Made by a program: the position numbers and the translations under genes. The notes under the pieces were generated by a model. That model worked only from the letters and a program-made list of their open reading frames with translations, made no database searches and was not told the origin of the DNA. 64,000 nt of DNA from Escherichia phage vB_EcoM-Pr103Blw, in the sequence record MW481326.1, one strand, 5' to 3'. Shown here piece by piece: positions 6,331 through 61,568 of the stretch; position 1 is the stretch's first letter; each line of letters begins with the position of its first letter.

Positions 6331-7466
6331 TATTCACCTCCTACTGGATTAACGGTAACTGTTGCGGCATTAGAGGTTACTGAACCTCCTGCACCAGTAA
6401 CTACACAAGTGTATGAACCAGCATCATCTGCACTCGTTGCACTTTCTTTGGTGTAAGTTGCAGCAGTTGCACTAGGAATGTTTACGTTATCTTTCTTCCA
6501 CTGATAGCCTGTTGCACCAGTAGCTACAACACTTAGTGTCAAGGTTTCACCTTCTGTGATTTCTTGATTTGTTGGTTGCTGAGTAATAACTGGTAGTGCG
6601 TTTACTGTGATAGTTGCAGGGTTAGAAGTAACCGAACCTCCAGCACCTGTTACAACGCAAGTGTATGAGCCAGCATCTGCTGGAAGTGCACCAGATTTGC
6701 TATATGTGGCCTTTGTAGCTGAAGGGATGTCGGAACCATCTTTCTTCCATTGGTAACCAGTTGCACCTGTTGCAGTAACTGCTAAGCTGATGTTTCCACC
6801 TTCATTAACGGTCTGGTTAGAAGGTTGCTTGGTAATCACTGGTAAGGCATTCACAGTAACTGTTGCTGCATCTGATGTGACACTTGTCCCACCCTCCCCA
6901 GATACAACACAAGTATATGAACCAGCGTCAGAAGGAACCACTGACTGTTTTGTGTAAGTTGCAGAGGTAGCACTAGTGATATCTTCACCACCCTTCTTCC
7001 ACTGATACCCTGTGGCATTAACTGCAACAACACTTAAGGTAAGTGCACCACCTTCATTTACTGTTTGATTGGTTGGTTGCTGAGTGATTGATGGTGGTTT
7101 GATAGCATCCTTTAACTTAGCATTTAACATTGAGAATGGTTTAACTCTTGCCAACCATTCACAATAAACAGTATCAACGTCTTTACCATTGATAATTGCA
7201 TATTGCAAATCCATGAAGAAATCAGAAGTTCTCATTTGAGTACCGATGCTGTAAAGCAACTCATCACTAAATGGGACTTTATAGGCTGGTTTGTAGTCAA
7301 ACTCTTCAACTTCTGCAATATCAGCTTCAGGCCAATACGAACTATAAGTAAGTGGCAAAATAGCCTCTTGATATGTTCTAAAATCATATCTCTTACCAGC
7401 CTTTACATTTGCAACGAAGCCCTTTACAAACTCTTTGAAGTCTGGGTAAGTCTTTGCTTTAATCAT
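6330..7466 (-). CDS. protein with three tandem Ig-like domains and an N-terminal domain paralogous to the neighbouring ORF
   Basis: Three about 85-aa repeats each containing ATGYQWKK ... DAGSYTCVV (Ig-fold Y-x-C signature); N-terminal 130 aa shares WPE(A/E)DI, YKP, LLY, FxMDxQY, RxNAKL with ORF 7463..7834. Confidence 0.6.
   Translation of the reverse strand: MIKAKTYPDFKEFVKGFVANVKAGKRYDFRTYQEAILPLTYSSYWPEADIAEVEEFDYKPAYKVPFSDELLYSIGTQMRTSDFFMDLQYAIINGKDVDTVYCEWLARVKPFSMLNAKLKDAIKPPSITQQPTNQTVNEGGALTLSVVAVNATGYQWKKGGEDITSATSATYTKQSVVPSDAGSYTCVVSGEGGTSVTSDAATVTVNALPVITKQPSNQTVNEGGNISLAVTATGATGYQWKKDGSDIPSATKATYSKSGALPADAGSYTCVVTGAGGSVTSNPATITVNALPVITQQPTNQEITEGETLTLSVVATGATGYQWKKDNVNIPSATAATYTKESATSADDAGSYTCVVTGAGGSVTSNAATVTVNPVGGE
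6333..7079 (-). repeat. three tandem about 250-bp coding repeats (Ig-like domain units)
   Basis: Near-identical peptide blocks repeated three times in the translated ORF. Confidence 0.6.
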
Positions 7467-7834
7467 TTCTTTTTAGCCTCTAAACGTGCGTTTAATCTAA
7501 AATAGCCTTTGTGTTGTGGAGAGACATCACCAACAACAATACCTTCAACCTTATAACCTTTACCAATTACATACTGAATATCCATAAGAAATGTACCAAG
7601 ACCAACAATATGGAACATTGGATATAATAATTTCTCTGAATCTGGGAGGTTAATTTCAGGTTTGTAGGTAGGTTGTTCACTCGTGGGTGTGATGTCTTCT
7701 TCAGGCCATCTACTAAGTCTCCATGTTAAAGGGGATGAGATAACATCATTAAGATTGTATATTTCACCATTCTCCACGGAATTGATATAGGATTGTAGGA
7801 AGCAATAAAAGTCTTTTGCACTCTTAGCCTTCAT
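7463..7834 (-). CDS. hypothetical protein, paralog of N-terminal domain of the Ig-repeat protein
   Basis: 123-aa ORF sharing several conserved blocks with residues 1-130 of ORF 6330..7466. Confidence 0.5.
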   Translation of the reverse strand: MKAKSAKDFYCFLQSYINSVENGEIYNLNDVISSPLTWRLSRWPEEDITPTSEQPTYKPEINLPDSEKLLYPMFHIVGLGTFLMDIQYVIGKGYKVEGIVVGDVSPQHKGYFRLNARLEAKKK

Positions 7835-7859
7835 TAAATATCCTTATAAAATAGATAAA

Positions 7860-7873
7860 GGGGCATTAGCCCC
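7860..7873 (-). terminator. short GC hairpin (GGGGC-ATTA-GCCCC) followed by T-rich run on minus strand
   Basis: seen between ORFs 7463..7834 and 7883..8473. Confidence 0.4.
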
Positions 7874-7882
7874 TATTCTCAC

Positions 7883-8473
7883 TTAAGCTTTAGTCTTAAG
7901 TAGGTTCTTAAGCTTTTTGAGATTCATACTCTCATCAAACTTAAAACCAAATCCATTGACATAATCAATGAACTCGGATTTTTTAGTAAGTGACAGTGCA
8001 TAACTCATATCAAAATTGTTTCCAGTTTCATAATCAGGACTTGAGTTAACATCAAATGAGATTTCAGTAGGTTCTTGTTTACTGTTTCTCATATTGTCAA
8101 TTAGCAAACAAGTGTAGTTTGCCGGATAGAAGTTTGCACTACCATCAACATATGTGTACTTGTTATTGTGAATAAGATTGGAAAATACCTTCAGGAAGGT
8201 TTCAGAGTCGTGACATACAAGTTTGAACTGACTTCCTTCACCGAGAGCTACTAATGAGTATGGGCTTTCACTATCAATGTCATAGTTTGGGTTTGATGTG
8301 GTTACAGTTACACGCATCAAGTTATTAGCAATAGTCTTTTGTTTAAAAGAATTTGGAACGTAGTGAAGACCTCTATCACACTGGTTAACCAACTCTTTCA
8401 ATAGGTCATTTGAATAAGGTGAGTTGATTGATACAGAGCCATCACTATTGTAATTAAAACTTACTGTTAACAT
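7883..8473 (-). CDS. hypothetical protein
   Basis: 196-aa ORF. Confidence 0.45.
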   Translation of the reverse strand: MLTVSFNYNSDGSVSINSPYSNDLLKELVNQCDRGLHYVPNSFKQKTIANNLMRVTVTTSNPNYDIDSESPYSLVALGEGSQFKLVCHDSETFLKVFSNLIHNNKYTYVDGSANFYPANYTCLLIDNMRNSKQEPTEISFDVNSSPDYETGNNFDMSYALSLTKKSEFIDYVNGFGFKFDESMNLKKLKNLLKTKA

Positions 8474-52556: not shown

Positions 52557-52757
52557 ATGAAGATGAGAGTAAAAGACAATTTTAAAGTTATTGACCACCG
52601 TTTAGTGGAACTCTCATCTCTTTCCAATGAGGTAATGATTGAACGTCTTAAGAGAGTTGAATCACGAAGGAAAGAGATTGCAGATGAAATTCATGAACTG
52701 GACAAGATTGAAAATGGATTGAAGGCAGAACTACAACGAAGAGGTGCTAATGTCTAA
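52557..52757 (+). CDS. hypothetical coiled-coil protein
   Basis: 66-aa ORF. Confidence 0.35.
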   Translation: MKMRVKDNFKVIDHRLVELSSLSNEVMIERLKRVESRRKEIADEIHELDKIENGLKAELQRRGANV

Positions 52758-54735
52758 AGGTCGTAAATTGAAAGAGGCTGGTCAGTTTATTGGTCATTGT
52801 GCATGTCCACGTTGTGGTTCATCAGATGCTGGTTCAATCTATCATCATGACGATGATTCTTATTCAATGACTTGCTTTAGTTGTAACAAAGGTTTCCCAG
52901 AGTGGGATTTTGATAAAGGACAAATCGTGAGCACTTATTCTACTGGTTCAGACAATAAAAACCGTACTTTCCGTGGAATGGATTTAGACGATGTGAAAGA
53001 AAACCTTGAAGCAATGGACTTAAAGGATAGGAAGATTCCTGCAAAAGTCCTTGAACGCTTAGGTATCAAGGTTGACATTGACAGTGATGGTGAAATTGAT
53101 GCGCACTTCTATCCAACTTACAAACGTAATGAAGATGGTAAGCTAGAACATGTTGGTTACCGTGTTCGTCACCGTTACCCAGAAGACCATCCAAAAGAGC
53201 ACCTACGTGGTAAGCTAAAAGACTTTTCTGGTGGTGTTGGAGACATTAAAGGTGAACTGGCAATGTTCGGTTCATGGATTGCTCCAGAAGGTGGTAACCG
53301 TCTATTCATCTGGGAAGGTGAGATGGAATGTGCGACAGCAATCTATATGACCTCTCTTGCGATTAAAGACAAGTCTCGTCGTAAGAATTACTGTCATGTA
53401 TCTGTTCCGTCAGGTGCAAACATCAAGTCTATCAAAGATAACTATCAGTACATCACATCATTTGATGAGATTTACTTGTGCTTTGATAATGATGAAGCAG
53501 GTGCTAAAGCTACCAAAGAGGCTGCTGGTATCTTACCTATTGAGAAGGTTCGTTTATTCCAGTATCCAGAAGGTGTAAAAGACCTTAATGAATGGTGGAC
53601 AAAGTTCTATAAAGAAAAAGACACAGTTCTTGAAGGGTTTAAGCAGCGTATCTACAACGCACCTCGTTATTGCCCTGCTGGTATCAAGAACTTTGCAGAT
53701 GGTTTTGAGGCAATGAAGAATCGTGGTCAGATTCCTTTGATTCCTTTCCCAGAATCTTTCGGGGATTTGAACAGACTAACTTACGGTGGTTATGGTTTAG
53801 GAGAGATTACAACTCTGGCAGCACCATCTTCAGTAGGTAAATCAGCTTACACTCGTGAGATGATTTATTCAGCTTGGAAGGAAACCGATTACAATATTGG
53901 TGTAATTCCGGTAGAAGATACCTATGAAGAGTTGATGGAGATGCTCTGTGCAATTCACCTGAGCAAACAGATTTCTGAGATTCCTTATGACGAACGTGAT
54001 TGGGATGAATTAAAGGAAGCACACGCAGAACTATCTAAAGGTCGTCGTATCCACATCGTAGACCATCAAGGGGCGATTGACCAAGACAACCTGCTGGAAT
54101 TTGTTGACTATCTTGTTAACAGTTTAGACTGTAAGATTATTATTCTTGACCCTATTACGTTGGCTCTGTCACGTTCAGATACGGATGAAGAGGAAGTTTT
54201 GTCTGAGCTATTGCGTCGTTGCAAACGCTACCAGTATGCACAGGTTAACGTCTGTCACGTTCGTAAGAGTGCAGGTGGTCAGAAAGCTAACTCTGAAGGT
54301 GGAGATATCTCTGAAGAGGATATTAAGGGTTCTGGTGCGTATTTCCAGATTTCCATGAACAACATTCTGTTAATGCGTAACAAGGTTGACCCAGACCCTG
54401 TTAAGAAAAACTTGACAAAAATCAAGTTAACTAAGTGTCGTCGTCATGGTAAGTCAACAGGTATTGCTGGTCATACTTGGTACAATCCAGACACAGGACG
54501 TCTTATCAAAGCTTCTGGGTGTGGTGTTGACATTGATGGCGCAGCAGAAAATATTCGACAACAGTTTGGCATTGGTGAAGCTGAAGACCATTATGATGAC
54601 TCTTTACCTCATTATGAGGATGAAGTGTTTGACCGTGAGACTGGTGAAGTCTATACTGAAGAACAGCGTCAAAGCTCAACGATTCCACCTGTATTAAGTG
54701 AGGATGCAGATGACTGCCCGTTCGAAACTGAGTGA
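52744..54735 (+). CDS. bifunctional DNA primase/helicase (T7 gp4-like)
   Basis: N-terminal zinc ribbon (CPRCGSSDAG ... CFSCN), central primase-like region, C-terminal DnaB-type Walker A (APSSVGKSA). Confidence 0.65.
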   Translation: MLMSKGRKLKEAGQFIGHCACPRCGSSDAGSIYHHDDDSYSMTCFSCNKGFPEWDFDKGQIVSTYSTGSDNKNRTFRGMDLDDVKENLEAMDLKDRKIPAKVLERLGIKVDIDSDGEIDAHFYPTYKRNEDGKLEHVGYRVRHRYPEDHPKEHLRGKLKDFSGGVGDIKGELAMFGSWIAPEGGNRLFIWEGEMECATAIYMTSLAIKDKSRRKNYCHVSVPSGANIKSIKDNYQYITSFDEIYLCFDNDEAGAKATKEAAGILPIEKVRLFQYPEGVKDLNEWWTKFYKEKDTVLEGFKQRIYNAPRYCPAGIKNFADGFEAMKNRGQIPLIPFPESFGDLNRLTYGGYGLGEITTLAAPSSVGKSAYTREMIYSAWKETDYNIGVIPVEDTYEELMEMLCAIHLSKQISEIPYDERDWDELKEAHAELSKGRRIHIVDHQGAIDQDNLLEFVDYLVNSLDCKIIILDPITLALSRSDTDEEEVLSELLRRCKRYQYAQVNVCHVRKSAGGQKANSEGGDISEEDIKGSGAYFQISMNNILLMRNKVDPDPVKKNLTKIKLTKCRRHGKSTGIAGHTWYNPDTGRLIKASGCGVDIDGAAENIRQQFGIGEAEDHYDDSLPHYEDEVFDRETGEVYTEEQRQSSTIPPVLSEDADDCPFETE

Positions 54736-54991
54736 TAGTTACAAAAGAGAGGGGTTCATACCCTTCTTTGAAGAAAAAAGTTTAAATAAATTTCAGGAAG
54801 AGTGTTTGACAAAGGTTGATAGGTTCTATAGAATGCTCCTCATGAAATGCAATGGGGAAGTTGATATAAAAGAAGATTTCTACCAAAGCACGATTACAGT
54901 CATCATTACACTGCCTCAGCATAATATTAGTTGGCTGTTTATCATTAAAGAAAATGTGTTTGAATATCAAGTATATCGGAGAATATCATGA
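54698..54991 (+). CDS. hypothetical protein
   Basis: 97-aa ORF overlapping helicase 3' end. Confidence 0.3.
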   Translation: MRMQMTARSKLSDSYKREGFIPFFEEKSLNKFQEECLTKVDRFYRMLLMKCNGEVDIKEDFYQSTITVIITLPQHNISWLFIIKENVFEYQVYRRIS

Positions 54992-55137
54992 AACACTCTA
55001 AAGCATTTGAAAAAGTTTTTGGGGATTCCTTAAAAGCCACTGCTGGTAAACCAGCAAAATACTATGAAGAGAAGCGTGTAAGAACTGGAAAAACTGCACG
55101 TAAAGCAGCTTCTAAAGATAAGCACAACTTCCAGTAA
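54988..55137 (+). CDS. small basic protein (49 aa, below ORF-track cutoff)
   Basis: ATG at 54988 preceded by GGAGAATATC; peptide MKHSKAFEKVFGDSLKATAGKPAKYYEEKRVRTGKTARKAASKDKHNFQ. Confidence 0.3.
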   Translation: MKHSKAFEKVFGDSLKATAGKPAKYYEEKRVRTGKTARKAASKDKHNFQ

Positions 55138-55209
55138 TTAATGTTTGACAATAGAGTATCAACAAATTAGAATTGGTACTTTTCATAAATTGAGATAGAG
55201 GTTTAAATA

Positions 55210-56067
55210 ATGTCTAAAGTTGTTAAAATGAAAGCTCCGGTAGAGAAGTACAATGGTACTGAACGTCAAACTCTGCGTTACCTTCTGAAAGATGTTTGGT
55301 TTTATTACCTGAACACTTCACCACGTCCGGGAAAAGGCAAATCCATTGATAAGAAATTCCCAGGCAAAGACTGTAACTACAGTGTTTCAATTCTGGCAGA
55401 AGATGGTAACAAACTGTTTAAAGAGTTTACTAAGTCTAAGAAAAACCCAGAAGGTTGGGATAAAGTTACTACTGAAGCAGTTGATGCAGATGACTTCGAA
55501 GAGAAGTTTGGTTGCAAACCACCATTTGAAGCAGACACTTACTACATCTTGAAAGTAAGTCGTGCAGCAGCTTATAAAGATGGTGCTGTGTGGACAGCTA
55601 AACAGTCATTCCCTGTAATGCTGATTGAAGAAGTAAATGGTAAGCGTGTAGCTGTTAAACAGCCGATGAAGAAAATCAAAGCTCAAGCATCTGACAAACA
55701 TGAAGATGACAAGAACTATGATGTAATTCATCCAGATATTGCAGTCGGTAATGGTTCTTTTGGTAGTGTGATTCTTTCTACTCACTTCTACACTTTTGAG
55801 AACAATGTCCTGACAAAACCTATTCAGGAACAGTTTATCATTGACACCCTTGTACCCTACACTGGTGGTAACGGTGCTAACGGTGAACCTGAACTGGATG
55901 AAGACGAACTGGCTATGCTTGGTCTTGATGGTGTTGAAGACAACGGTGAAATCACTGAAGAAGACGCAAAAGACCACAAGCCTTCTAATGATTCTGATGA
56001 TGGTGACGATGAAGACTTGCCAGACCCAGATGACGAAGAAGATGAAGACTTCGATACAGAAGACTAA
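55210..56067 (+). CDS. single-stranded DNA-binding protein-like with acidic C-terminal tail
   Basis: 285-aa ORF ending in DDGDDEDLPDPDDEEDEDFDTED, as in T7 gp2.5/T4 gp32-type SSBs; placed among replication genes. Confidence 0.45.
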   Translation: MSKVVKMKAPVEKYNGTERQTLRYLLKDVWFYYLNTSPRPGKGKSIDKKFPGKDCNYSVSILAEDGNKLFKEFTKSKKNPEGWDKVTTEAVDADDFEEKFGCKPPFEADTYYILKVSRAAAYKDGAVWTAKQSFPVMLIEEVNGKRVAVKQPMKKIKAQASDKHEDDKNYDVIHPDIAVGNGSFGSVILSTHFYTFENNVLTKPIQEQFIIDTLVPYTGGNGANGEPELDEDELAMLGLDGVEDNGEITEEDAKDHKPSNDSDDGDDEDLPDPDDEEDEDFDTED

Positions 56068-56129
56068 TCTTTAAAAGTTACTTTAAAGCCCTGTACTTAG
56101 TATGGGGCTTTTTCATATGGAGAGTCACA

Positions 56130-57170
56130 ATGGAGAAGTACACGCTAACAAAACTTCCCGATTCAGTTACACATGTCTTTATTGACTCTGACAGTATTGC
56201 CTATAAAGGTGCTTGTGTAGTTGAGAAAGCAAAATATAAGTATGTCAATAAACTAACAGCAGAAGAATCTGAACCATTTGATAATGCAAAAGATGCGGCA
56301 AGATGGTTAGCAGACCAGAGAATCCTTGTGGAAGAACTTGGCCTGACATTTGATGAAGATGAATGGGAAAGACAGACTTGGAAAGAAGCTAAGAGTGAAA
56401 AAGAAGCTATCATGGCTACTCAGCAGGTTCTTCAGGAATGGCTTAAGGTTGTTGGTAAAGAGAGAACTTGGGTAGGTTACTTAACAGAGAAGGGTGTACA
56501 TAAACATAAAGACATTAAAGGTCTTGAGCACCAATATCAAGGTAACCGTAAAGAGGCTGTCACACCAACACACTTGGTTGCTTGTCGTGAATATCTTCTG
56601 TCAAGACCAGAGTTTAAACTCTTAAAGGGTGGCTTCGAAGCCGATTCCATCGTAATTGCTAAAGCTGAAAAGATGGGTAAGAAGGCTGCTCTTATGAGTA
56701 TTGACAAAGACCTTCGACAAGCTGAAGGTACTTATTGTATTGATATGACTTATGAAAAGTCACCACTAATTTTTATTGCTGACAATAATGTTGGTGATAT
56801 CTGGGATTGTCCTATCAAATCAAAACCAAAAGCTGCAAAAACAGTTGGTGTAGGTTTTAAATTTTTGTGTTATCAGGCTGTTGCTGGAGATAATGCAGAC
56901 AACTACTTCGGCCTTAAAGGTGCTGGAAAAGTAGCTGTGATGAATGCTTTAGATGGTAAAGAGACTTATAAAGAGTGCCTTGACGCTATCTATGAACTCT
57001 ATGCTAAAAAAGAGTCTTACACCTATGTGTCATGGGATGGACAGACTGTTACCAAAACACCATTAGAGTTAATGGAACAACATTTCTGGATAGCATATCA
57101 AGAGAGAAATCCAAAAGATAATTTCTCTTTTAAGAAATATAATTGGGAGCCGTGTATGAATGAAGATTAA
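56130..57170 (+). CDS. 5'-3' exonuclease / flap endonuclease-like (putative)
   Basis: N-terminal VFIDSDSIAYKGA resembles FEN/5'-nuclease motif; weak. Confidence 0.35.
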   Translation: MEKYTLTKLPDSVTHVFIDSDSIAYKGACVVEKAKYKYVNKLTAEESEPFDNAKDAARWLADQRILVEELGLTFDEDEWERQTWKEAKSEKEAIMATQQVLQEWLKVVGKERTWVGYLTEKGVHKHKDIKGLEHQYQGNRKEAVTPTHLVACREYLLSRPEFKLLKGGFEADSIVIAKAEKMGKKAALMSIDKDLRQAEGTYCIDMTYEKSPLIFIADNNVGDIWDCPIKSKPKAAKTVGVGFKFLCYQAVAGDNADNYFGLKGAGKVAVMNALDGKETYKECLDAIYELYAKKESYTYVSWDGQTVTKTPLELMEQHFWIAYQERNPKDNFSFKKYNWEPCMNED

Positions 57171-57657
57171 AGGATTTGGCAATTGTCCTACCTATGGTCA
57201 TTGGGTATCTTTATGTGGGGAAGTTGACCCCACTAAACATTTTGGTTTTGTCTATTTAGTATACTGTAAGAAAACCGGACAATATTATATCGGAAAGAAA
57301 CAGCTTAATAGTGTGACCAAAAGAAAAGTTGCTGGCAAGACTCGGAAGAAGGTAGTCACTAAGGAAAGTGATTGGATGACTTATGAGACTTCCTCTGAGT
57401 ATATTAAAAAGGATATTGAGAGCTTTGGAAAAGAATTTTTTGACTTTTACATTATTCAAACCTACTACACAAAAGGTGGTCTAGTTTATGGTGAAGCAAA
57501 CCTTCAACATAAATTCGATGTAATGACAAAAAGGATTGACTCTAAGCTCAGACTCTTCTACAATGCCAATATTGCAGCAATTAAGTTTATTACTAAAGAA
57601 ACTTATGAAGATGCTGAAAAAAGAATCCATAAGGTAATGAAAGCAAATTGTGCTTGA
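57160..57657 (+). CDS. GIY-YIG nuclease-domain protein
   Basis: GFVYLVYCKKTGQYYIGKK contains the spaced (G)VY ... YIG signature. Confidence 0.5.
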   Translation: MKIKGFGNCPTYGHWVSLCGEVDPTKHFGFVYLVYCKKTGQYYIGKKQLNSVTKRKVAGKTRKKVVTKESDWMTYETSSEYIKKDIESFGKEFFDFYIIQTYYTKGGLVYGEANLQHKFDVMTKRIDSKLRLFYNANIAAIKFITKETYEDAEKRIHKVMKANCA

Positions 57658-57663
57658 TAACTA

Positions 57664-57927
57664 TTGAGAGAGAATAAAATGTTTAACAAAAGTAAAGCTG
57701 TGAGTCATGTAGCAAAAGTTGACAGCAAGATTGAAGAACTTGAGCGCATTCTTGCAAATGCCAGAGAGTCAATAATTAAAGAGGTTGAAGCTGTTGAATC
57801 TCAAATGCAGCACCTAATGCTTAAACGTCAAGAGCTACGTGAGCATCTGGAATATATTGAAACACGAGAGCTAAAGGTTAACAGATATTTTAAGGAGTCC
57901 AAATGTTTAACTCAAGAGAATCAGTAA
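57664..57927 (+). CDS. hypothetical coiled-coil protein
   Basis: 87-aa ORF. Confidence 0.4.
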   Translation: MRENKMFNKSKAVSHVAKVDSKIEELERILANARESIIKEVEAVESQMQHLMLKRQELREHLEYIETRELKVNRYFKESKCLTQENQ

Positions 57928-58658
57928 AAAACTGGAATCTTCGTTGTGGAAAAACTCAAAAGCAACCTTACAGTGATGAGTATTGGGAATCTTTGAAATC
58001 TCAATCTCTATGTATGCTTGAAGAAGCAAAAGAGCTTGTAAAAGCAATTGAAGAGAAAGACCCCATTGAGACACTTGATGCTCAGGCAGATTTGCAATAT
58101 GTTCTTGACGGTTTGATTTATCTGTCACAACATGACCATAATGGTGCTATGGAAGCTGTTTGCCATAATAATGACCTGAAGTACACAGATGACTATGAAG
58201 AAGCTTTGAAACGTCTTGCAGATATTGAGAAGCGTACTGGTCAAGAATGTATCATCAGAATGTCAGTAGTTGATGGTAAAGAGTGGTATGCAATTGTTCG
58301 TGCAGCAGATGGGAAGATTATGAAGCAGTCTAATCTCCCTAAAGTGCAGCTTGGTGAATACATTGTAGAACTTGAAAGCCAAGAACTTTTTGTGGTAGTA
58401 TCTGAGACATGCGTTATCTGCAAAGGTATTGTAGGTAGCTTAAAGGATTTGGGTGTAGATGGTTTTGTAGAAGTTAATCCAATTACCTCTAAAGCAGATA
58501 AAGATTTCTGTAAAGAGAATGGACTATGGATTGCAGATATTGTCTACTATGATGGTGAGGAGTTCCATGTAACCTCATACCCGAAACTGAATTATGATGC
58601 TAATAACCTGAAGTGCTGGTTAAAAGGGGTTGGTTATAATGGATTCACAGAACATTAA
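57903..58658 (+). CDS. hypothetical protein (possible MazG-like N-terminal helical domain)
   Basis: 251-aa ORF; N-terminal EEAKELVKAIEE ... DLQYVLDGLIYL weakly reminiscent of all-alpha NTP pyrophosphohydrolases. Confidence 0.35.
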   Translation: MFNSRESVKNWNLRCGKTQKQPYSDEYWESLKSQSLCMLEEAKELVKAIEEKDPIETLDAQADLQYVLDGLIYLSQHDHNGAMEAVCHNNDLKYTDDYEEALKRLADIEKRTGQECIIRMSVVDGKEWYAIVRAADGKIMKQSNLPKVQLGEYIVELESQELFVVVSETCVICKGIVGSLKDLGVDGFVEVNPITSKADKDFCKENGLWIADIVYYDGEEFHVTSYPKLNYDANNLKCWLKGVGYNGFTEH

Positions 58659-58962
58659 TAAAGAAGGTGTGGCTCAGAAGAGCCACTTCTCAAACTACAA
58701 TATCTCTATGACGGTGTTTATGAATGACCCGTTACTTGAGAAGTATGGTGAGACTCCAGATACACTTCTGGATAATGAACAAGTTTTAAAAGCAGTTCTG
58801 TACAAATACGGGATTGATATTGAGAAAGAGTATTCTTTTGAAATCTGTCAACACAGGAATACTTTTGGTAAAGTTGTAATGGCTCCACTCTTCATGGGTG
58901 TAGAAAGAACTGACTATGGTTGGCTATATCTAAAAAGAAACTTGGAGAAATACCGTGTCTAA
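58630..58962 (+). CDS. hypothetical protein
   Basis: 110-aa ORF. Confidence 0.4.
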   Translation: MVIMDSQNINKEGVAQKSHFSNYNISMTVFMNDPLLEKYGETPDTLLDNEQVLKAVLYKYGIDIEKEYSFEICQHRNTFGKVVMAPLFMGVERTDYGWLYLKRNLEKYRV

Positions 58963-59287
58963 AGCAAAAAAGTTATCTTATGATGACATTATCTCAGGTG
59001 CTAAATTAGGTGTTGATAGTATCGGACAAGATGTTAAGCACGGAGACACAGTTATGTACTGTGACGACCGAAGAGGCAGAAGTGCAATCTTGTTTGGAAG
59101 AGTTGTTTGCAAGATGCGAGGTAATTACGTTGTTGAAGACATGAATGTGGATGTCACAAAACAGCTTGAAATAATTATGAATAGTAATATATCATGGTTC
59201 GTCAATTGTATGCACACTTCGTCAGTCACAAAGGTAAGTGATAAGTTTTACGATATGTGGCAGAATGAGCAAATTTTCAAGATTTAA
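58955..59287 (+). CDS. hypothetical protein
   Basis: 110-aa ORF. Confidence 0.4.
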   Translation: MSKAKKLSYDDIISGAKLGVDSIGQDVKHGDTVMYCDDRRGRSAILFGRVVCKMRGNYVVEDMNVDVTKQLEIIMNSNISWFVNCMHTSSVTKVSDKFYDMWQNEQIFKI

Positions 59288-59292
59288 ACTAG

Positions 59293-59312
59293 GGAGCCTC
59301 TTCGGAGGCTCT
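59293..59312 (+). promoter_or_regulatory. GC hairpin with UUCG tetraloop (GGAGCCTC-TTCG-GAGGCTC) upstream of nrdA
   Basis: Perfect stem; weak T-run, so attenuator or processing site rather than strong terminator. Confidence 0.45.
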
Positions 59313-59333
59313 TCTCATCTGTAGGATTCAAAA

Positions 59334-61568
59334 ATGATTAAGACAATTAAAAAATCAAACGGTACAGTAGTAAGCTTTGACCCAGAAAGACTGAATAAGT
59401 GGGCATCATGGGCAGATAAGCGTGGAATTATCTGGTCAGAAGTCACTATGGAAGCTATGAAGCGTGTCTATGAAGGTTGCACTACAAAAGAGATGCACCA
59501 AGCTATGATTGATGTTTGTGTTGATAAACAAACTCAAGAGTACTCAGACATGGCTGGACGGCTACTTCTGGGTATTATCTACAAAGAAGCCTTTGGAGGC
59601 TTTACTAAGGTTCCTACGCTGGTTACCTTCGTTAAAAATATGGAGAGAGCAGGGCTTTGGGAGAAGATGGACTATTCTCAGGAAGAGCTTGAATATCTGC
59701 AAGGGTACATTGTGCACTCAAAAGATATCTCTTACGGTTATGCAGTCCTGAAACAGTTCAGAGACAAGTATGGTATCCGTGATATTAAAACGGGAAGACT
59801 TTTTGAGTCACCACAATTTATGTTTATGGGTATGGCTATGAAAGCCTTCGAGAAGCAACCAAAGCACCGCAGACTGCAAGATGTGATTAAGCTGTACACT
59901 TACCTGTCTGACCTGAAGATTAATGCTCCTACGCCTTATCTGAATGGTTTACGTGCTACTAAGTCAGGTTATGCGTCATGCTGTTTGATTAAGGCAAATG
60001 ATACTGCTGAGTCACTTGGTATTGCTGCAAAGGTTGCTTATGATATGACTACGAAGCAAGCTGGTATTGGTATGCTGATGGAGACTCGCACTATTGGTGA
60101 TGGTATCCGTCAAAATACTATTGAGCACATGGGTAAACTGCCTTATTACAAGCTTGTACGTTCATCTGTAGAGGCAAATAAACAGAAGAGTCGTGGTGGT
60201 TCAGCTAACAACTTCTACACCGCTCTAGACCCGCAGATTGAAGATTTACTACGTTTGAAGCACCCTACAACGGTTCCTTCTAAACGTATTAATGAGATGG
60301 ACTACTCATTTGGTACAAATGATTATTTCTGGCAGTGTGTTCAATATGATACAGATTGGTTGCTATTCTCTTACAAGGATGCGCCAAAACTTTATGATAT
60401 GTTCTACACCGCATCTGCTGATGAGTTCGCTATGGCAGTTGGTCACGCAGTACACTCTGGTGTTAAGCACAGACGAGTAAAGGCTCGTGAAATTGCTAAA
60501 CTGTTTATCCAGCAGCGTTACGCAACAGGTCGTGTGTATCCATTCTTCACAAATAATGCAAATACACATACACCATTTAAAGAACCTTTGAAGATGTCAA
60601 ATCTTTGTATGGAAATTGTGTTGCCAGTGTACGGCTTTGAGAAAGAGACAGACCTTTACAGAGACGATGCTGTGAAGGAGGATGGTGAGGTAGCTCTTTG
60701 CTTCCTAGCTAGTTTGGTTGCAGGGAGAATTTCAGAAGATGAATACGCTGACGTTGCTTATTATGCTCTTGCAATGGTTGACTCCGTTATTGACCTTATG
60801 GATTATCCGTATCCGTCGATGCGTAACCATGTTCAGAAGCGTCGTTCTGTTGGGATTGGCCTTACAAATGTGGCTCATTACCTTGCGAAGAACTACGTGA
60901 ACTACTCTTCAAGGGCTGGTAAGACAAAGCTTCACGAACTTGCAGAGATGCACTCTTACTATCTGCATGAAGCTTCTCTAAGACTTGCTAAAGAGCGTGG
61001 TGTACCTGAATACATGAAGTTCACTAAGTACCCTGAAGGATGGGTTCCTCCGAAGACAGCTAACAAGAAGATTGATGAGAAGCATGATGCAAAACTAAGA
61101 TATGATTGGGATGACTTAGCACAACGTATCAAAGAAAATGGTGGCATCCGAAACTCTGTACTTGAGGCTTATATGCCTAATGAGAGTTCTTCACTGGCAA
61201 CTAATACGACAAATGGCTTGTACCCAATTCGTGACTTTATTTTAACTAAAAAGTCTGCAACTGGTAACGTACTGTTTATTGTTCCAGATTATGAAGAGTT
61301 GAAGTATGTCTATGAAATTGCTTGGGATATTGACACCTTTGACCTGATTGATTGTTATGCAATTGTCCAAAAGTTCACTGGTCAAGCTATCTCTTCAGAT
61401 TTCTATGTTGACTACGCAAAAGCTAAGAAGGTATCATTGGCTCAAGCTTTGAAGTATATGATTTATGCCAACTCGGTAGGTATGAAAACCATGTACTACC
61501 TTAACAGTCGCATCGGTGTAGGTAAGTCTGCACTGCAAGATGCTTATTGCGAGGGCTGTGGTGTTTAG
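59334..61568 (+). CDS. nrdA: ribonucleotide reductase class Ia large subunit
   Basis: 744 aa; N-terminal ATP-cone-like (IKKSNGTVVSFDPERLNKW); followed by nrdB candidate. Confidence 0.7.
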   Translation: MIKTIKKSNGTVVSFDPERLNKWASWADKRGIIWSEVTMEAMKRVYEGCTTKEMHQAMIDVCVDKQTQEYSDMAGRLLLGIIYKEAFGGFTKVPTLVTFVKNMERAGLWEKMDYSQEELEYLQGYIVHSKDISYGYAVLKQFRDKYGIRDIKTGRLFESPQFMFMGMAMKAFEKQPKHRRLQDVIKLYTYLSDLKINAPTPYLNGLRATKSGYASCCLIKANDTAESLGIAAKVAYDMTTKQAGIGMLMETRTIGDGIRQNTIEHMGKLPYYKLVRSSVEANKQKSRGGSANNFYTALDPQIEDLLRLKHPTTVPSKRINEMDYSFGTNDYFWQCVQYDTDWLLFSYKDAPKLYDMFYTASADEFAMAVGHAVHSGVKHRRVKAREIAKLFIQQRYATGRVYPFFTNNANTHTPFKEPLKMSNLCMEIVLPVYGFEKETDLYRDDAVKEDGEVALCFLASLVAGRISEDEYADVAYYALAMVDSVIDLMDYPYPSMRNHVQKRRSVGIGLTNVAHYLAKNYVNYSSRAGKTKLHELAEMHSYYLHEASLRLAKERGVPEYMKFTKYPEGWVPPKTANKKIDEKHDAKLRYDWDDLAQRIKENGGIRNSVLEAYMPNESSSLATNTTNGLYPIRDFILTKKSATGNVLFIVPDYEELKYVYEIAWDIDTFDLIDCYAIVQKFTGQAISSDFYVDYAKAKKVSLAQALKYMIYANSVGMKTMYYLNSRIGVGKSALQDAYCEGCGV

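Follow-up and report, generated by a model that had tools for sequence, protein, structure and literature searches.

Among GIY-YIG nucleases, I-TevI is encoded in an intron, and the binding of its target needs a linker, a zinc finger and a helix-turn-helix (HTH) tail. GIY-YIG nucleases can also be structure-specific, as is the case of Slx1. There is a precedent for the domestication of such nucleases by phages, the Odn protein of phage ICP1 (PMC8263062). Here, we analysed a gene for a short GIY-YIG protein within a stretch of 64,000 nucleotides of Escherichia phage vB_EcoM-Pr103Blw (MW481326.1), which we call the window. The source genome is that of a Felix-O1-like myovirus (genus Felixounavirus, subfamily Ounavirinae), and positions 55000-60000 are 96-98% identical to many phages of E. 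coli, Salmonella and Shigella. GenBank already contains identical proteins, named inconsistently, and the nuclease family itself is known; the modest novelty lies in the fixed core-gene status of the gene, its recurrent pairing with an exonuclease and a corrected annotation. A previous reading of the letters alone, the sequence-only reading, had described a 165-residue product with the GIY-YIG signature among replication genes, had judged it too short to carry the DNA-binding domain of homing endonucleases, and had proposed a minimal homing or repair nuclease or the remnant of a mobile element. We find that the gene very probably encodes an intact nuclease of the SegE type, fixed in its phages and maintained by selection.

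The open reading frame (ORF) lies where it had been placed, from an ATG at 57160 to a TGA at 57655-57657, and the parts of its product of 165 amino acids (aa) are as follows.

57160-57657 (stop included), plus strand: coding sequence of the SegE-type stand-alone GIY-YIG nuclease, 165 aa, 19.2 kDa, pI 9.5
57160-57240, plus strand: N-terminal extension, aa 1-27, with short beta-strands in the AlphaFold (AF2) model and a G-H14-W15 motif
57244-57300, plus strand: GIY-YIG hairpin G29-F30-V31-Y32...Y43-I44-G45-K46-K47, with G29, Y32, Y43, G45 and K47 invariant
57301-57372, plus strand: Lys/Arg-rich beta-hairpin insert, aa 48-71, QLNSVTKRKVAGKTRKKVVTKESD, model strands 50-56 and 63-69
57373-57396, plus strand: W72-x-x-Y75-x-x-S78-S79 motif, with W72, Y75 and S78 invariant, aligning to Y30-L-G-S33 of T4 SegE
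57493-57495, plus strand: codon of E112, putative metal-binding catalytic Glu, invariant, in model helix 105-118
57562-57564, plus strand: codon of N135 (in F-Y-N), the conserved Asn of GIY-YIG nucleases, equivalent to N90 of I-TevI; invariant, aligning with 'NYYN' of T4 SegE
57607-57648, plus strand: C-terminal amphipathic helix, aa 150-163, in the AF2 model; the sole element beyond the nuclease domain

The GIY-YIG signature is confirmed. Pfam PF19835 (SegE_GIY-YIG) matches residues 21-138 over model positions 10-123 of 123 with 96.1 bits (E=2.3e-27), far above its gathering cut-off of 25 bits, PHROG 447 matches residues 8-153 (E=5e-48), and the motif itself, GFVY-(10 aa)-YYIG, occupies residues 29-45, with 11 positions between Y32 (codon 57253-57255) and Y43 (57286-57288). 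No second Pfam match was found at E<=1, NCBIfam gave no match, and comparison by sequence with PDB returned only noise. The motif and a match to the family hidden Markov model (HMM) each occur a single time in the six frames of the window, and also once only in the six frames of the complete genome of phage Bas63. The structural model is confident (predicted local distance difference test, pLDDT, of 94.6), its best structural match being the catalytic domain of I-TevI (15% identity), and the protein is predicted to adopt the alpha/beta GIY-YIG fold, with the strands of the GIY-YIG hairpin at 29-36 and 41-48. The unrelated fold that the sequence-only reading had named as evidence against itself was therefore not found.

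All ten residues that are invariant among the 150-160 family members compared are kept (G29, Y32, Y43, G45, K47, W72, Y75, S78, E112 and N135), and E112 and N135 occur in the order expected for GIY-YIG nucleases. E112 is the putative counterpart of E75 of I-TevI, an equivalence drawn from the order of the motifs and not from a residue-level superposition. The motif that starts at W72 corresponds to the Y-x-G-S motif of the T4 Seg proteins. Two additions to the nuclease are specific to the family, the N-terminal G-H-W extension, for which 96% of 160 family domains have W15 and 81% have H14, and the 24-aa basic beta-hairpin, which has a family-wide median length of 24 aa and a median net charge of +7 and is probably a built-in DNA-binding arm. 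The family domain spans residues ~8-150, which leaves ~15 residues, i.e. the single helix 150-163, where long relatives have their NUMOD or HTH tail; the product is indeed too short for a DNA-binding domain of that kind. As judged from these motifs, the gene encodes a catalytically intact, domain-only GIY-YIG nuclease of the SegE subfamily.

The wider family contains both short and long proteins. Among 162 relatives, fewer than 10 residues follow the domain in 63 and at most 30 in 73 (~45% short forms), while ~48% have C-terminal tails of more than 60 residues, mostly 80-160. All six long forms that were scanned matched NUMOD3, NUMOD1 or HTH domains, which is the classic architecture of Seg- and I-TevI-like homing endonucleases. 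The product is, as the sequence-only reading had suggested, a minimal nuclease lacking the homing-type DNA-binding module, and its family PF19835 has long members with just that architecture. Short and long forms are intermixed in a neighbour-joining tree, in which the clade of the window's protein lies within a run of 17 short leaves. The window's protein shares 30-45% identity with most family members, and length is constant across its own subfamily. None of the best 150 representatives is long enough to be a fusion of exonuclease and GIY-YIG nuclease.

A homing gene should be present in some genomes and absent from the same site in others, and the comparison of related genomes that had been suggested as a check gave no such signature. 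The loci were retrieved from IMG/VR through the flanking exonuclease gene and not through the GIY-YIG gene. In all 28 of them the GIY-YIG gene is directly downstream of the exonuclease, at the same position, and no empty site was found. In the phage database, 296 records carry the GIY-YIG gene by blastn, and also 296 by tblastn at >=60% identity, against 303 with the exonuclease (tblastn). For the nine name groups printed in both searches the two counts agree group by group, in the larger ones (Escherichia 119, Salmonella 80, Erwinia 29, Shigella 23, Felixounavirus 14) as well as the smaller (Citrobacter 11, Enterobacteria 9, Phage 3, Hafnia 3). The remaining records include Pectobacterium phages, of which the one checked, Wc4, carries the gene. 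Four distant phages of the Ounavirinae type, Erwinia phage Coenus, Yersinia phage P778, Pectobacterium phage Wc4 and the metagenomic locus L037, have the same order of exonuclease and GIY-YIG gene, and in all of them the two genes abut or overlap by ~8 nucleotides. Protein identity to the window's copy is 99% for bas63_0057, the orthologue in Bas63, and 63% for Coenus. The GIY-YIG gene is a fixed, vertically inherited core gene of the Felix-O1-like phages (Ounavirinae).

Some individual records depart from this picture. In phage EC6 the orthologue falls into two ORFs (87 and 91 aa in BFVD; L029 ~7500-7990), the only disrupted copy seen; it may reflect a sequencing frameshift or a rare pseudogene in a single old record. 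The GIY-YIG gene of Staphylococcus phage SA1 (GU169904.1) has 98% aa identity to Felixounavirus, the exonuclease genes of SA1 and of Campylobacter phage A126 (MG065668.1) have 87-95% nucleotide identity to it, and P0007 ('Methanobrevibacter gottschalkii') shows 93% protein identity over a 93-aa fragment. These host names likely result from mislabelling, contamination or chimeric assembly.

Selection on the gene is strong. Relative to the window's copy, the ratio of nonsynonymous to synonymous divergence (dN/dS) stays within 0.00-0.07 in 27 loci and reaches 0.12 in EC6, whose copy is broken; another four pairs gave no estimate, their dS being saturated, and dS itself ranges from 0.1 to >2 across loci. 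These ratios are like those of the exonuclease gene, of the gene for a 285-aa protein further upstream and of NrdA, i.e. purifying selection on the GIY-YIG gene is as strong as on the neighbouring replication genes. In the clade of Moogle and SUSP phages, the GIY-YIG protein is 87-88% identical to that of the window, against 40-47% aa identity for the product of the adjacent 82-aa gene. The G+C content at third codon positions (GC3) is 0.31 in the GIY-YIG gene and 0.29-0.39 in its neighbours, and codon usage is likewise native. A foreign origin of the gene was thus put to a composition test, with a negative result.

There is, nevertheless, a mobile element at this place in many relatives.

57150-57160, no strand: empty junction in the window, where 12 of 28 relatives have an insertion of ~490 bp

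The insertion encodes a free-standing homing endonuclease of 171 aa with HNH_3 and AP2 domains (e.g. L008 7001-7516), an architecture inferred from the Pfam HNH_3 and AP2 matches of the paralogous bas63_0046 and from the GenBank labels of the inserted gene, 'HNH endonuclease' or 'AP2 domain protein'. It replaces the last codons of the exonuclease, and its stop overlaps the ATG of the GIY-YIG gene. Most loci bearing it show higher dS in the exonuclease gene (up to 0.67-0.84), and often in the GIY-YIG gene as well (0.39-0.59), than in genes further away (~0.1-0.25), which looks like co-conversion tracts around the insertion. The insertion-site variation that would have pointed to homing therefore exists, in 12 of the 28 relatives, but it belongs to the HNH-AP2 gene and not to the GIY-YIG gene.

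What the nuclease does may be approached through the gene that precedes it and the replication module around both.

56130-57170, plus strand: 5'-3' exonuclease, T7-gp6-like or FEN-type, 346 aa (phrog_107, E=3e-63)
57160-57170, plus strand: overlap between the start of the GIY-YIG gene and the end of the exonuclease ORF, 11 nucleotides, read from the sequence
52744-54735: T7-gp4-like primase-helicase (phmmer to T7 gp4, E=7e-43)
55210-56067, plus strand: 285-aa protein of the function-unknown PHROG 3877, with a strongly acidic C-terminal tail …DDEEDEDFDTED
55145-55173, plus strand: best match to a sigma-70-like promoter, TTGACA-17-TAGAAT, a consensus match only, upstream of the gene for the 285-aa protein

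The gene does stand among replication genes, since the primase-helicase, the gp6-like exonuclease, a MazG-like pyrophosphatase and NrdA are its neighbours, together with the 82-aa protein. Matches of the exonuclease to Pfam 5_3_exonuc are weak, and phmmer relates it to T7 gp6 with E=2.8e-4. A GGAG at 57146-57149, ahead of the ATG of the GIY-YIG gene, is likely its ribosome-binding site, and in combination with the overlap of 11 nucleotides it suggests that the two genes are co-transcribed and translationally coupled. The promoter-like site at 55145-55173 probably starts a transcription unit that includes both; between the exonuclease and the GIY-YIG gene there is no promoter-like site stronger than this match. 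The 285-aa protein has no Pfam match. In the marine relative L043 its slot, between primase-helicase and exonuclease, holds an Enc34-type single-stranded DNA-binding protein (SSB). The 285-aa protein may be an SSB like T7 gp2.5; against this, phmmer found no match to T7 gp2.5, the 285-aa protein included.

The order of exonuclease and GIY-YIG gene recurs in distantly related phage lineages, the two being neighbours in three lineages besides the Ounavirinae-type loci. In a group of marine podovirus-like contigs the GIY-YIG protein is 51% identical to the window's, and in most such contigs of ~40 kb the exonuclease is 78-132 bp upstream of the GIY-YIG gene (757 bp in one). L040 and L090 also have an upstream exonuclease, about 404-420 bp and 229 bp away, respectively, and in the group of roseophage CRP-7 the exonuclease belongs to the same replication module, ~4.2 kb from the GIY-YIG gene. 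The module of the window is T7-like, with matches to gp4 (E=7e-43) and gp6 (E=3e-4). T7 gp3, the endonuclease I of that phage, has no match in the window or in the whole Bas63 genome (E=0.49), and no resolvase is listed for phage JH2 in its PHROG-based RefSeq annotation. The DNA polymerase gene of JH2 is split by a gene annotated 'endonuclease VII' (L036 35586-39087), which is probably not a resolvase but an HNH homing endonuclease of the intron or intein type. Bas63 has homing endonucleases beside its polymerase gene and inside nrdD.

From the tie to the exonuclease and the T7-like module without detectable gp3, we therefore propose that the GIY-YIG protein may be a domesticated endonuclease that nicks or debranches DNA. 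It would be a relative of the Seg-type homing endonucleases that no longer moves; alternatively, it might resemble a housekeeping ancestor to which homing forms added DNA-binding tails. Its basic hairpin would bind DNA with little sequence specificity, and a metal ion coordinated by E112 and N135 would serve in cutting one strand or branched DNA. The nuclease would act jointly with the exonuclease, with which it is probably co-translated, on intermediates of replication and recombination. There it would introduce or remove nicks, flaps and branches for the exonuclease to resect, so that concatemers could be replicated, recombined and packaged. It would fill the functional place that T7 endonuclease I (gp3) has alongside gp6. 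Taken whole, this explanation is the best that we have, although we give it somewhat less than an even chance; the specific role, i.e. co-expression with the exonuclease for nicking and debranching intermediates, we put forward more tentatively still. A broader form of it strikes us as doubtful: the pair would be a conserved nuclease cassette of T7-like modules, in Ounavirinae and marine podovirus-like phages alike, the GIY-YIG member being either domesticated as an analogue of gp3 or drawn from a housekeeping stock ancestral to the Seg-type homing endonucleases.

Several points weigh against the domesticated nicking endonuclease. What speaks for the role is the arrangement of the genes, their co-expression and the missing gp3 homologue, and a resolvase not found among many hypothetical proteins is weak evidence. 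Adjacency to the exonuclease could be inherited module structure without functional coupling. It could also mark an old insertion hotspot of homing endonucleases, because an HNH endonuclease occupies the same junction today. Short family members of T4-like cyanophages (cyanomyoviruses) are not adjacent to an exonuclease. Between the window and the marine contig L043 the GIY-YIG proteins are 53% identical, as compared with 29% for primase-helicase and 24% for exonuclease, a contrast that would fit either a nuclease under extreme constraint or one that was transferred horizontally into this position later on, instead of being inherited together with its neighbours. The catalytic centre poses a further difficulty, since the family alignment has no invariant Arg that would be the equivalent of the active-site R27 of I-TevI; residues R62 and K64 of the basic hairpin sit where the first helix would be, and the invariant K47 is a candidate replacement for the canonical Arg. 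In the comparison of L043, a TARA marine contig, with positions 52744-61568 of the window, the ribonucleotide reductases are 22% identical.

Of the explanations that compete with the domesticated endonuclease, two concern mobility and were offered by the sequence-only reading. In the homing cycle of Goddard and Burt, a fixed homing endonuclease gene is expected to decay unless it has gained a function for its host. The GIY-YIG gene has not decayed, hence both readings are poorly supported and the gene seems neither a currently mobile nor a decaying homing element. An active free-standing homing endonuclease would cut genomes free of the gene and spread by gene conversion despite its short length, as might be thought from its membership of the SegE family, the homing architecture of its long relatives and the name 'GIY-YIG homing endonuclease' in several GenBank records. 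Its locus is a demonstrated insertion hotspot for homing endonucleases, and at deep divergence the GIY-YIG protein outlasts its neighbours in conservation. Yet every one of the 28 loci is occupied, record counts of the gene and its flank match, synteny extends to distant phages, the DNA-binding tail is missing, composition is native and raised dS in the flanks follows the HNH insertion. Purifying selection up to saturated dS across genera is not what one expects of a fixed selfish element, and we regard active homing as quite improbable. As to the functionless remnant of a mobile element, one could invoke the absence of the tail that about half of the family carries and the split gene of EC6. 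But the latter is one old record and possibly a sequencing error, and decay is hardly conceivable in a gene with dN/dS of 0.00-0.12 while dS reaches saturation, with all ten invariant residues intact, constant length in its subfamily and a confident structure prediction.

The other competing explanations accept a function and differ on which one. A promiscuous endonuclease degrading host DNA, like T4 EndoII (DenA) or T7 gp3 with gp6, would agree with the nucleotide-salvage neighbourhood: nicked host DNA would be passed to the exonuclease and yield nucleotides for the salvage enzymes of the phage (deoxynucleoside monophosphate kinase, MazG, ribonucleotide reductases and thymidylate synthase). 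However, the plasmid DNA that SUSP1 and SUSP2, members of Ounavirinae, release is intact and transformable, which sets them apart from T4 (Keen et al. 2017, PMC5241400), and both carry an orthologue 87% identical to the window's protein (phiSUSP1, KT454805.2 41644-42115; also L013/L014 ~7031-7519). Bulk degradation of host DNA is disfavoured by this observation, which concerns plasmids only, and because DenA is in a different Pfam family: it matches the generic PF01541 and not PF19835, and resembles the family HMM only weakly. For this reason the protein is not counted in the EndoII family. We know of no DNA modification in Ounavirinae that would tell phage from host DNA. Bas63 is reported to be sensitive to several restriction-modification systems (PMC8594841), and all in all we hold host degradation to be unlikely. 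Much the same probability goes to a counter-defence or competitor-exclusion nuclease acting on retron multicopy single-stranded DNA (msDNA), rival phages or satellites, as Odn of ICP1 does on PLE. Domesticated phage nucleases of the GIY-YIG superfamily have this precedent (PMC8263062), and a PhageMaP preprint reports that gp77 of Bas63, called 'GIY-YIG', counters retron Ec67 (PMC11482910), the only GIY-YIG signature detectable in Bas63 being in bas63_0057, the orthologue of the window's gene. But PhageMaP numbers otherwise follow locus tags (glutaredoxin 65, Ig-like 124), hence gp77 is bas63_0077 (L002 1948-2463), a different, HNH-like protein with the motif GHHKPV...GGEHH, a weak PHROG HNH match, no GIY-YIG signature and no similarity to the window's protein; as the window orthologue, the anti-retron gp77 was rejected. 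Counter-defence genes are usually variable and accessory, unlike a conserved gene inside a replication operon, and PADLOC gave no matches. A DNA-repair nuclease, making a 3' incision like the N-terminal part of UvrC or processing nicks on damaged phage DNA, was also on the list of the sequence-only reading. It is improbable, for UvrA- or UvrB-like partners and a damage-recognition domain are absent, similarity to UvrC is below that to I-TevI, and the family is essentially phage-borne and intermixed with homing forms.

These results have consequences for annotation. PHROG 447 carries the label 'NAD synthetase', as do many GenBank and RefSeq records of orthologues, and the label has apparently spread through this PHROG; others say 'GIY-YIG homing endonuclease', 'HNH homing endonuclease', 'baseplate hub assembly protein' or 'hypothetical protein'. 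NAD synthetase was rejected: there is no NAD synthase or PP-loop ATPase domain, PF19835 being the sole Pfam match at the cut-off given above. Our search of the literature on PF19835, on the 'NAD synthetase' of Felix O1 and on Ounavirinae core genes returned nothing on this gene. Correcting the name concerns hundreds of phage records that say "NAD synthetase" or "homing endonuclease". The results also show that a nuclease domain of the homing type can be a stable core gene of therapeutically important phages (Felix O1, Bas63, SUSP). Keen et al. 2017 (PMC5241400) state that homologues of known hydrolytic endonucleases are lacking in the 'superspreaders' SUSP1 and SUSP2; this needs qualifying, because both carry an intact GIY-YIG gene. 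If the partnership with the exonuclease is true, the missing branch-processing enzyme of the Felix-O1-like phages would be identified, and there would be a clean case of homing-endonuclease domestication, or of homing-endonuclease origin.

How then does the protein compare with the known systems? Neither Odn nor Slx1 is a close relative: Odn retains a DNA-binding domain and targets a satellite, whereas Slx1 has a zinc-finger domain and requires Slx4. The catalytic domain of I-TevI (PDB 1LN0) is 15% identical to the window's protein, in which the equivalent of R27 is not identifiable. With T7 the analogy is functional only, an endonuclease together with a gp6-type exonuclease in a T7-like replication module; gp3 is unrelated in fold and sequence, and the genes of gp3 and gp6 are non-adjacent in T7. 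T4 endonuclease II (DenA, PDB 2WSH) resembles the window's protein in being a phage GIY-YIG nuclease that is short and stands alone, in having additional N-terminal and middle segments, and in being encoded near genes of nucleotide metabolism. The Seg enzymes of T4 differ from the window's protein by their C-terminal DNA-binding domain and their sporadic occurrence, the window's gene being fixed at one locus across its subfamily; T4 SegE begins at the GIY motif, and both SegE and SegD lack the N-terminal G-H-W extension and are gapped at the 24-aa basic hairpin. Three features of free-standing homing endonucleases, i.e. the DNA-binding tail, the sporadic distribution and relaxed selection or foreign composition, are thus missing from this gene, even though its long kin carry NUMOD3, NUMOD1 or HTH tails as Seg and I-TevI enzymes do. 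Still, T4 SegE belongs to the same nuclease subfamily (PF19835 gives it 36.5 bits and the window's protein 96 bits), and the two share the GIY...YIGK hairpin, the Y-x-x-S motif, the catalytic Glu and the Asn of YYN.

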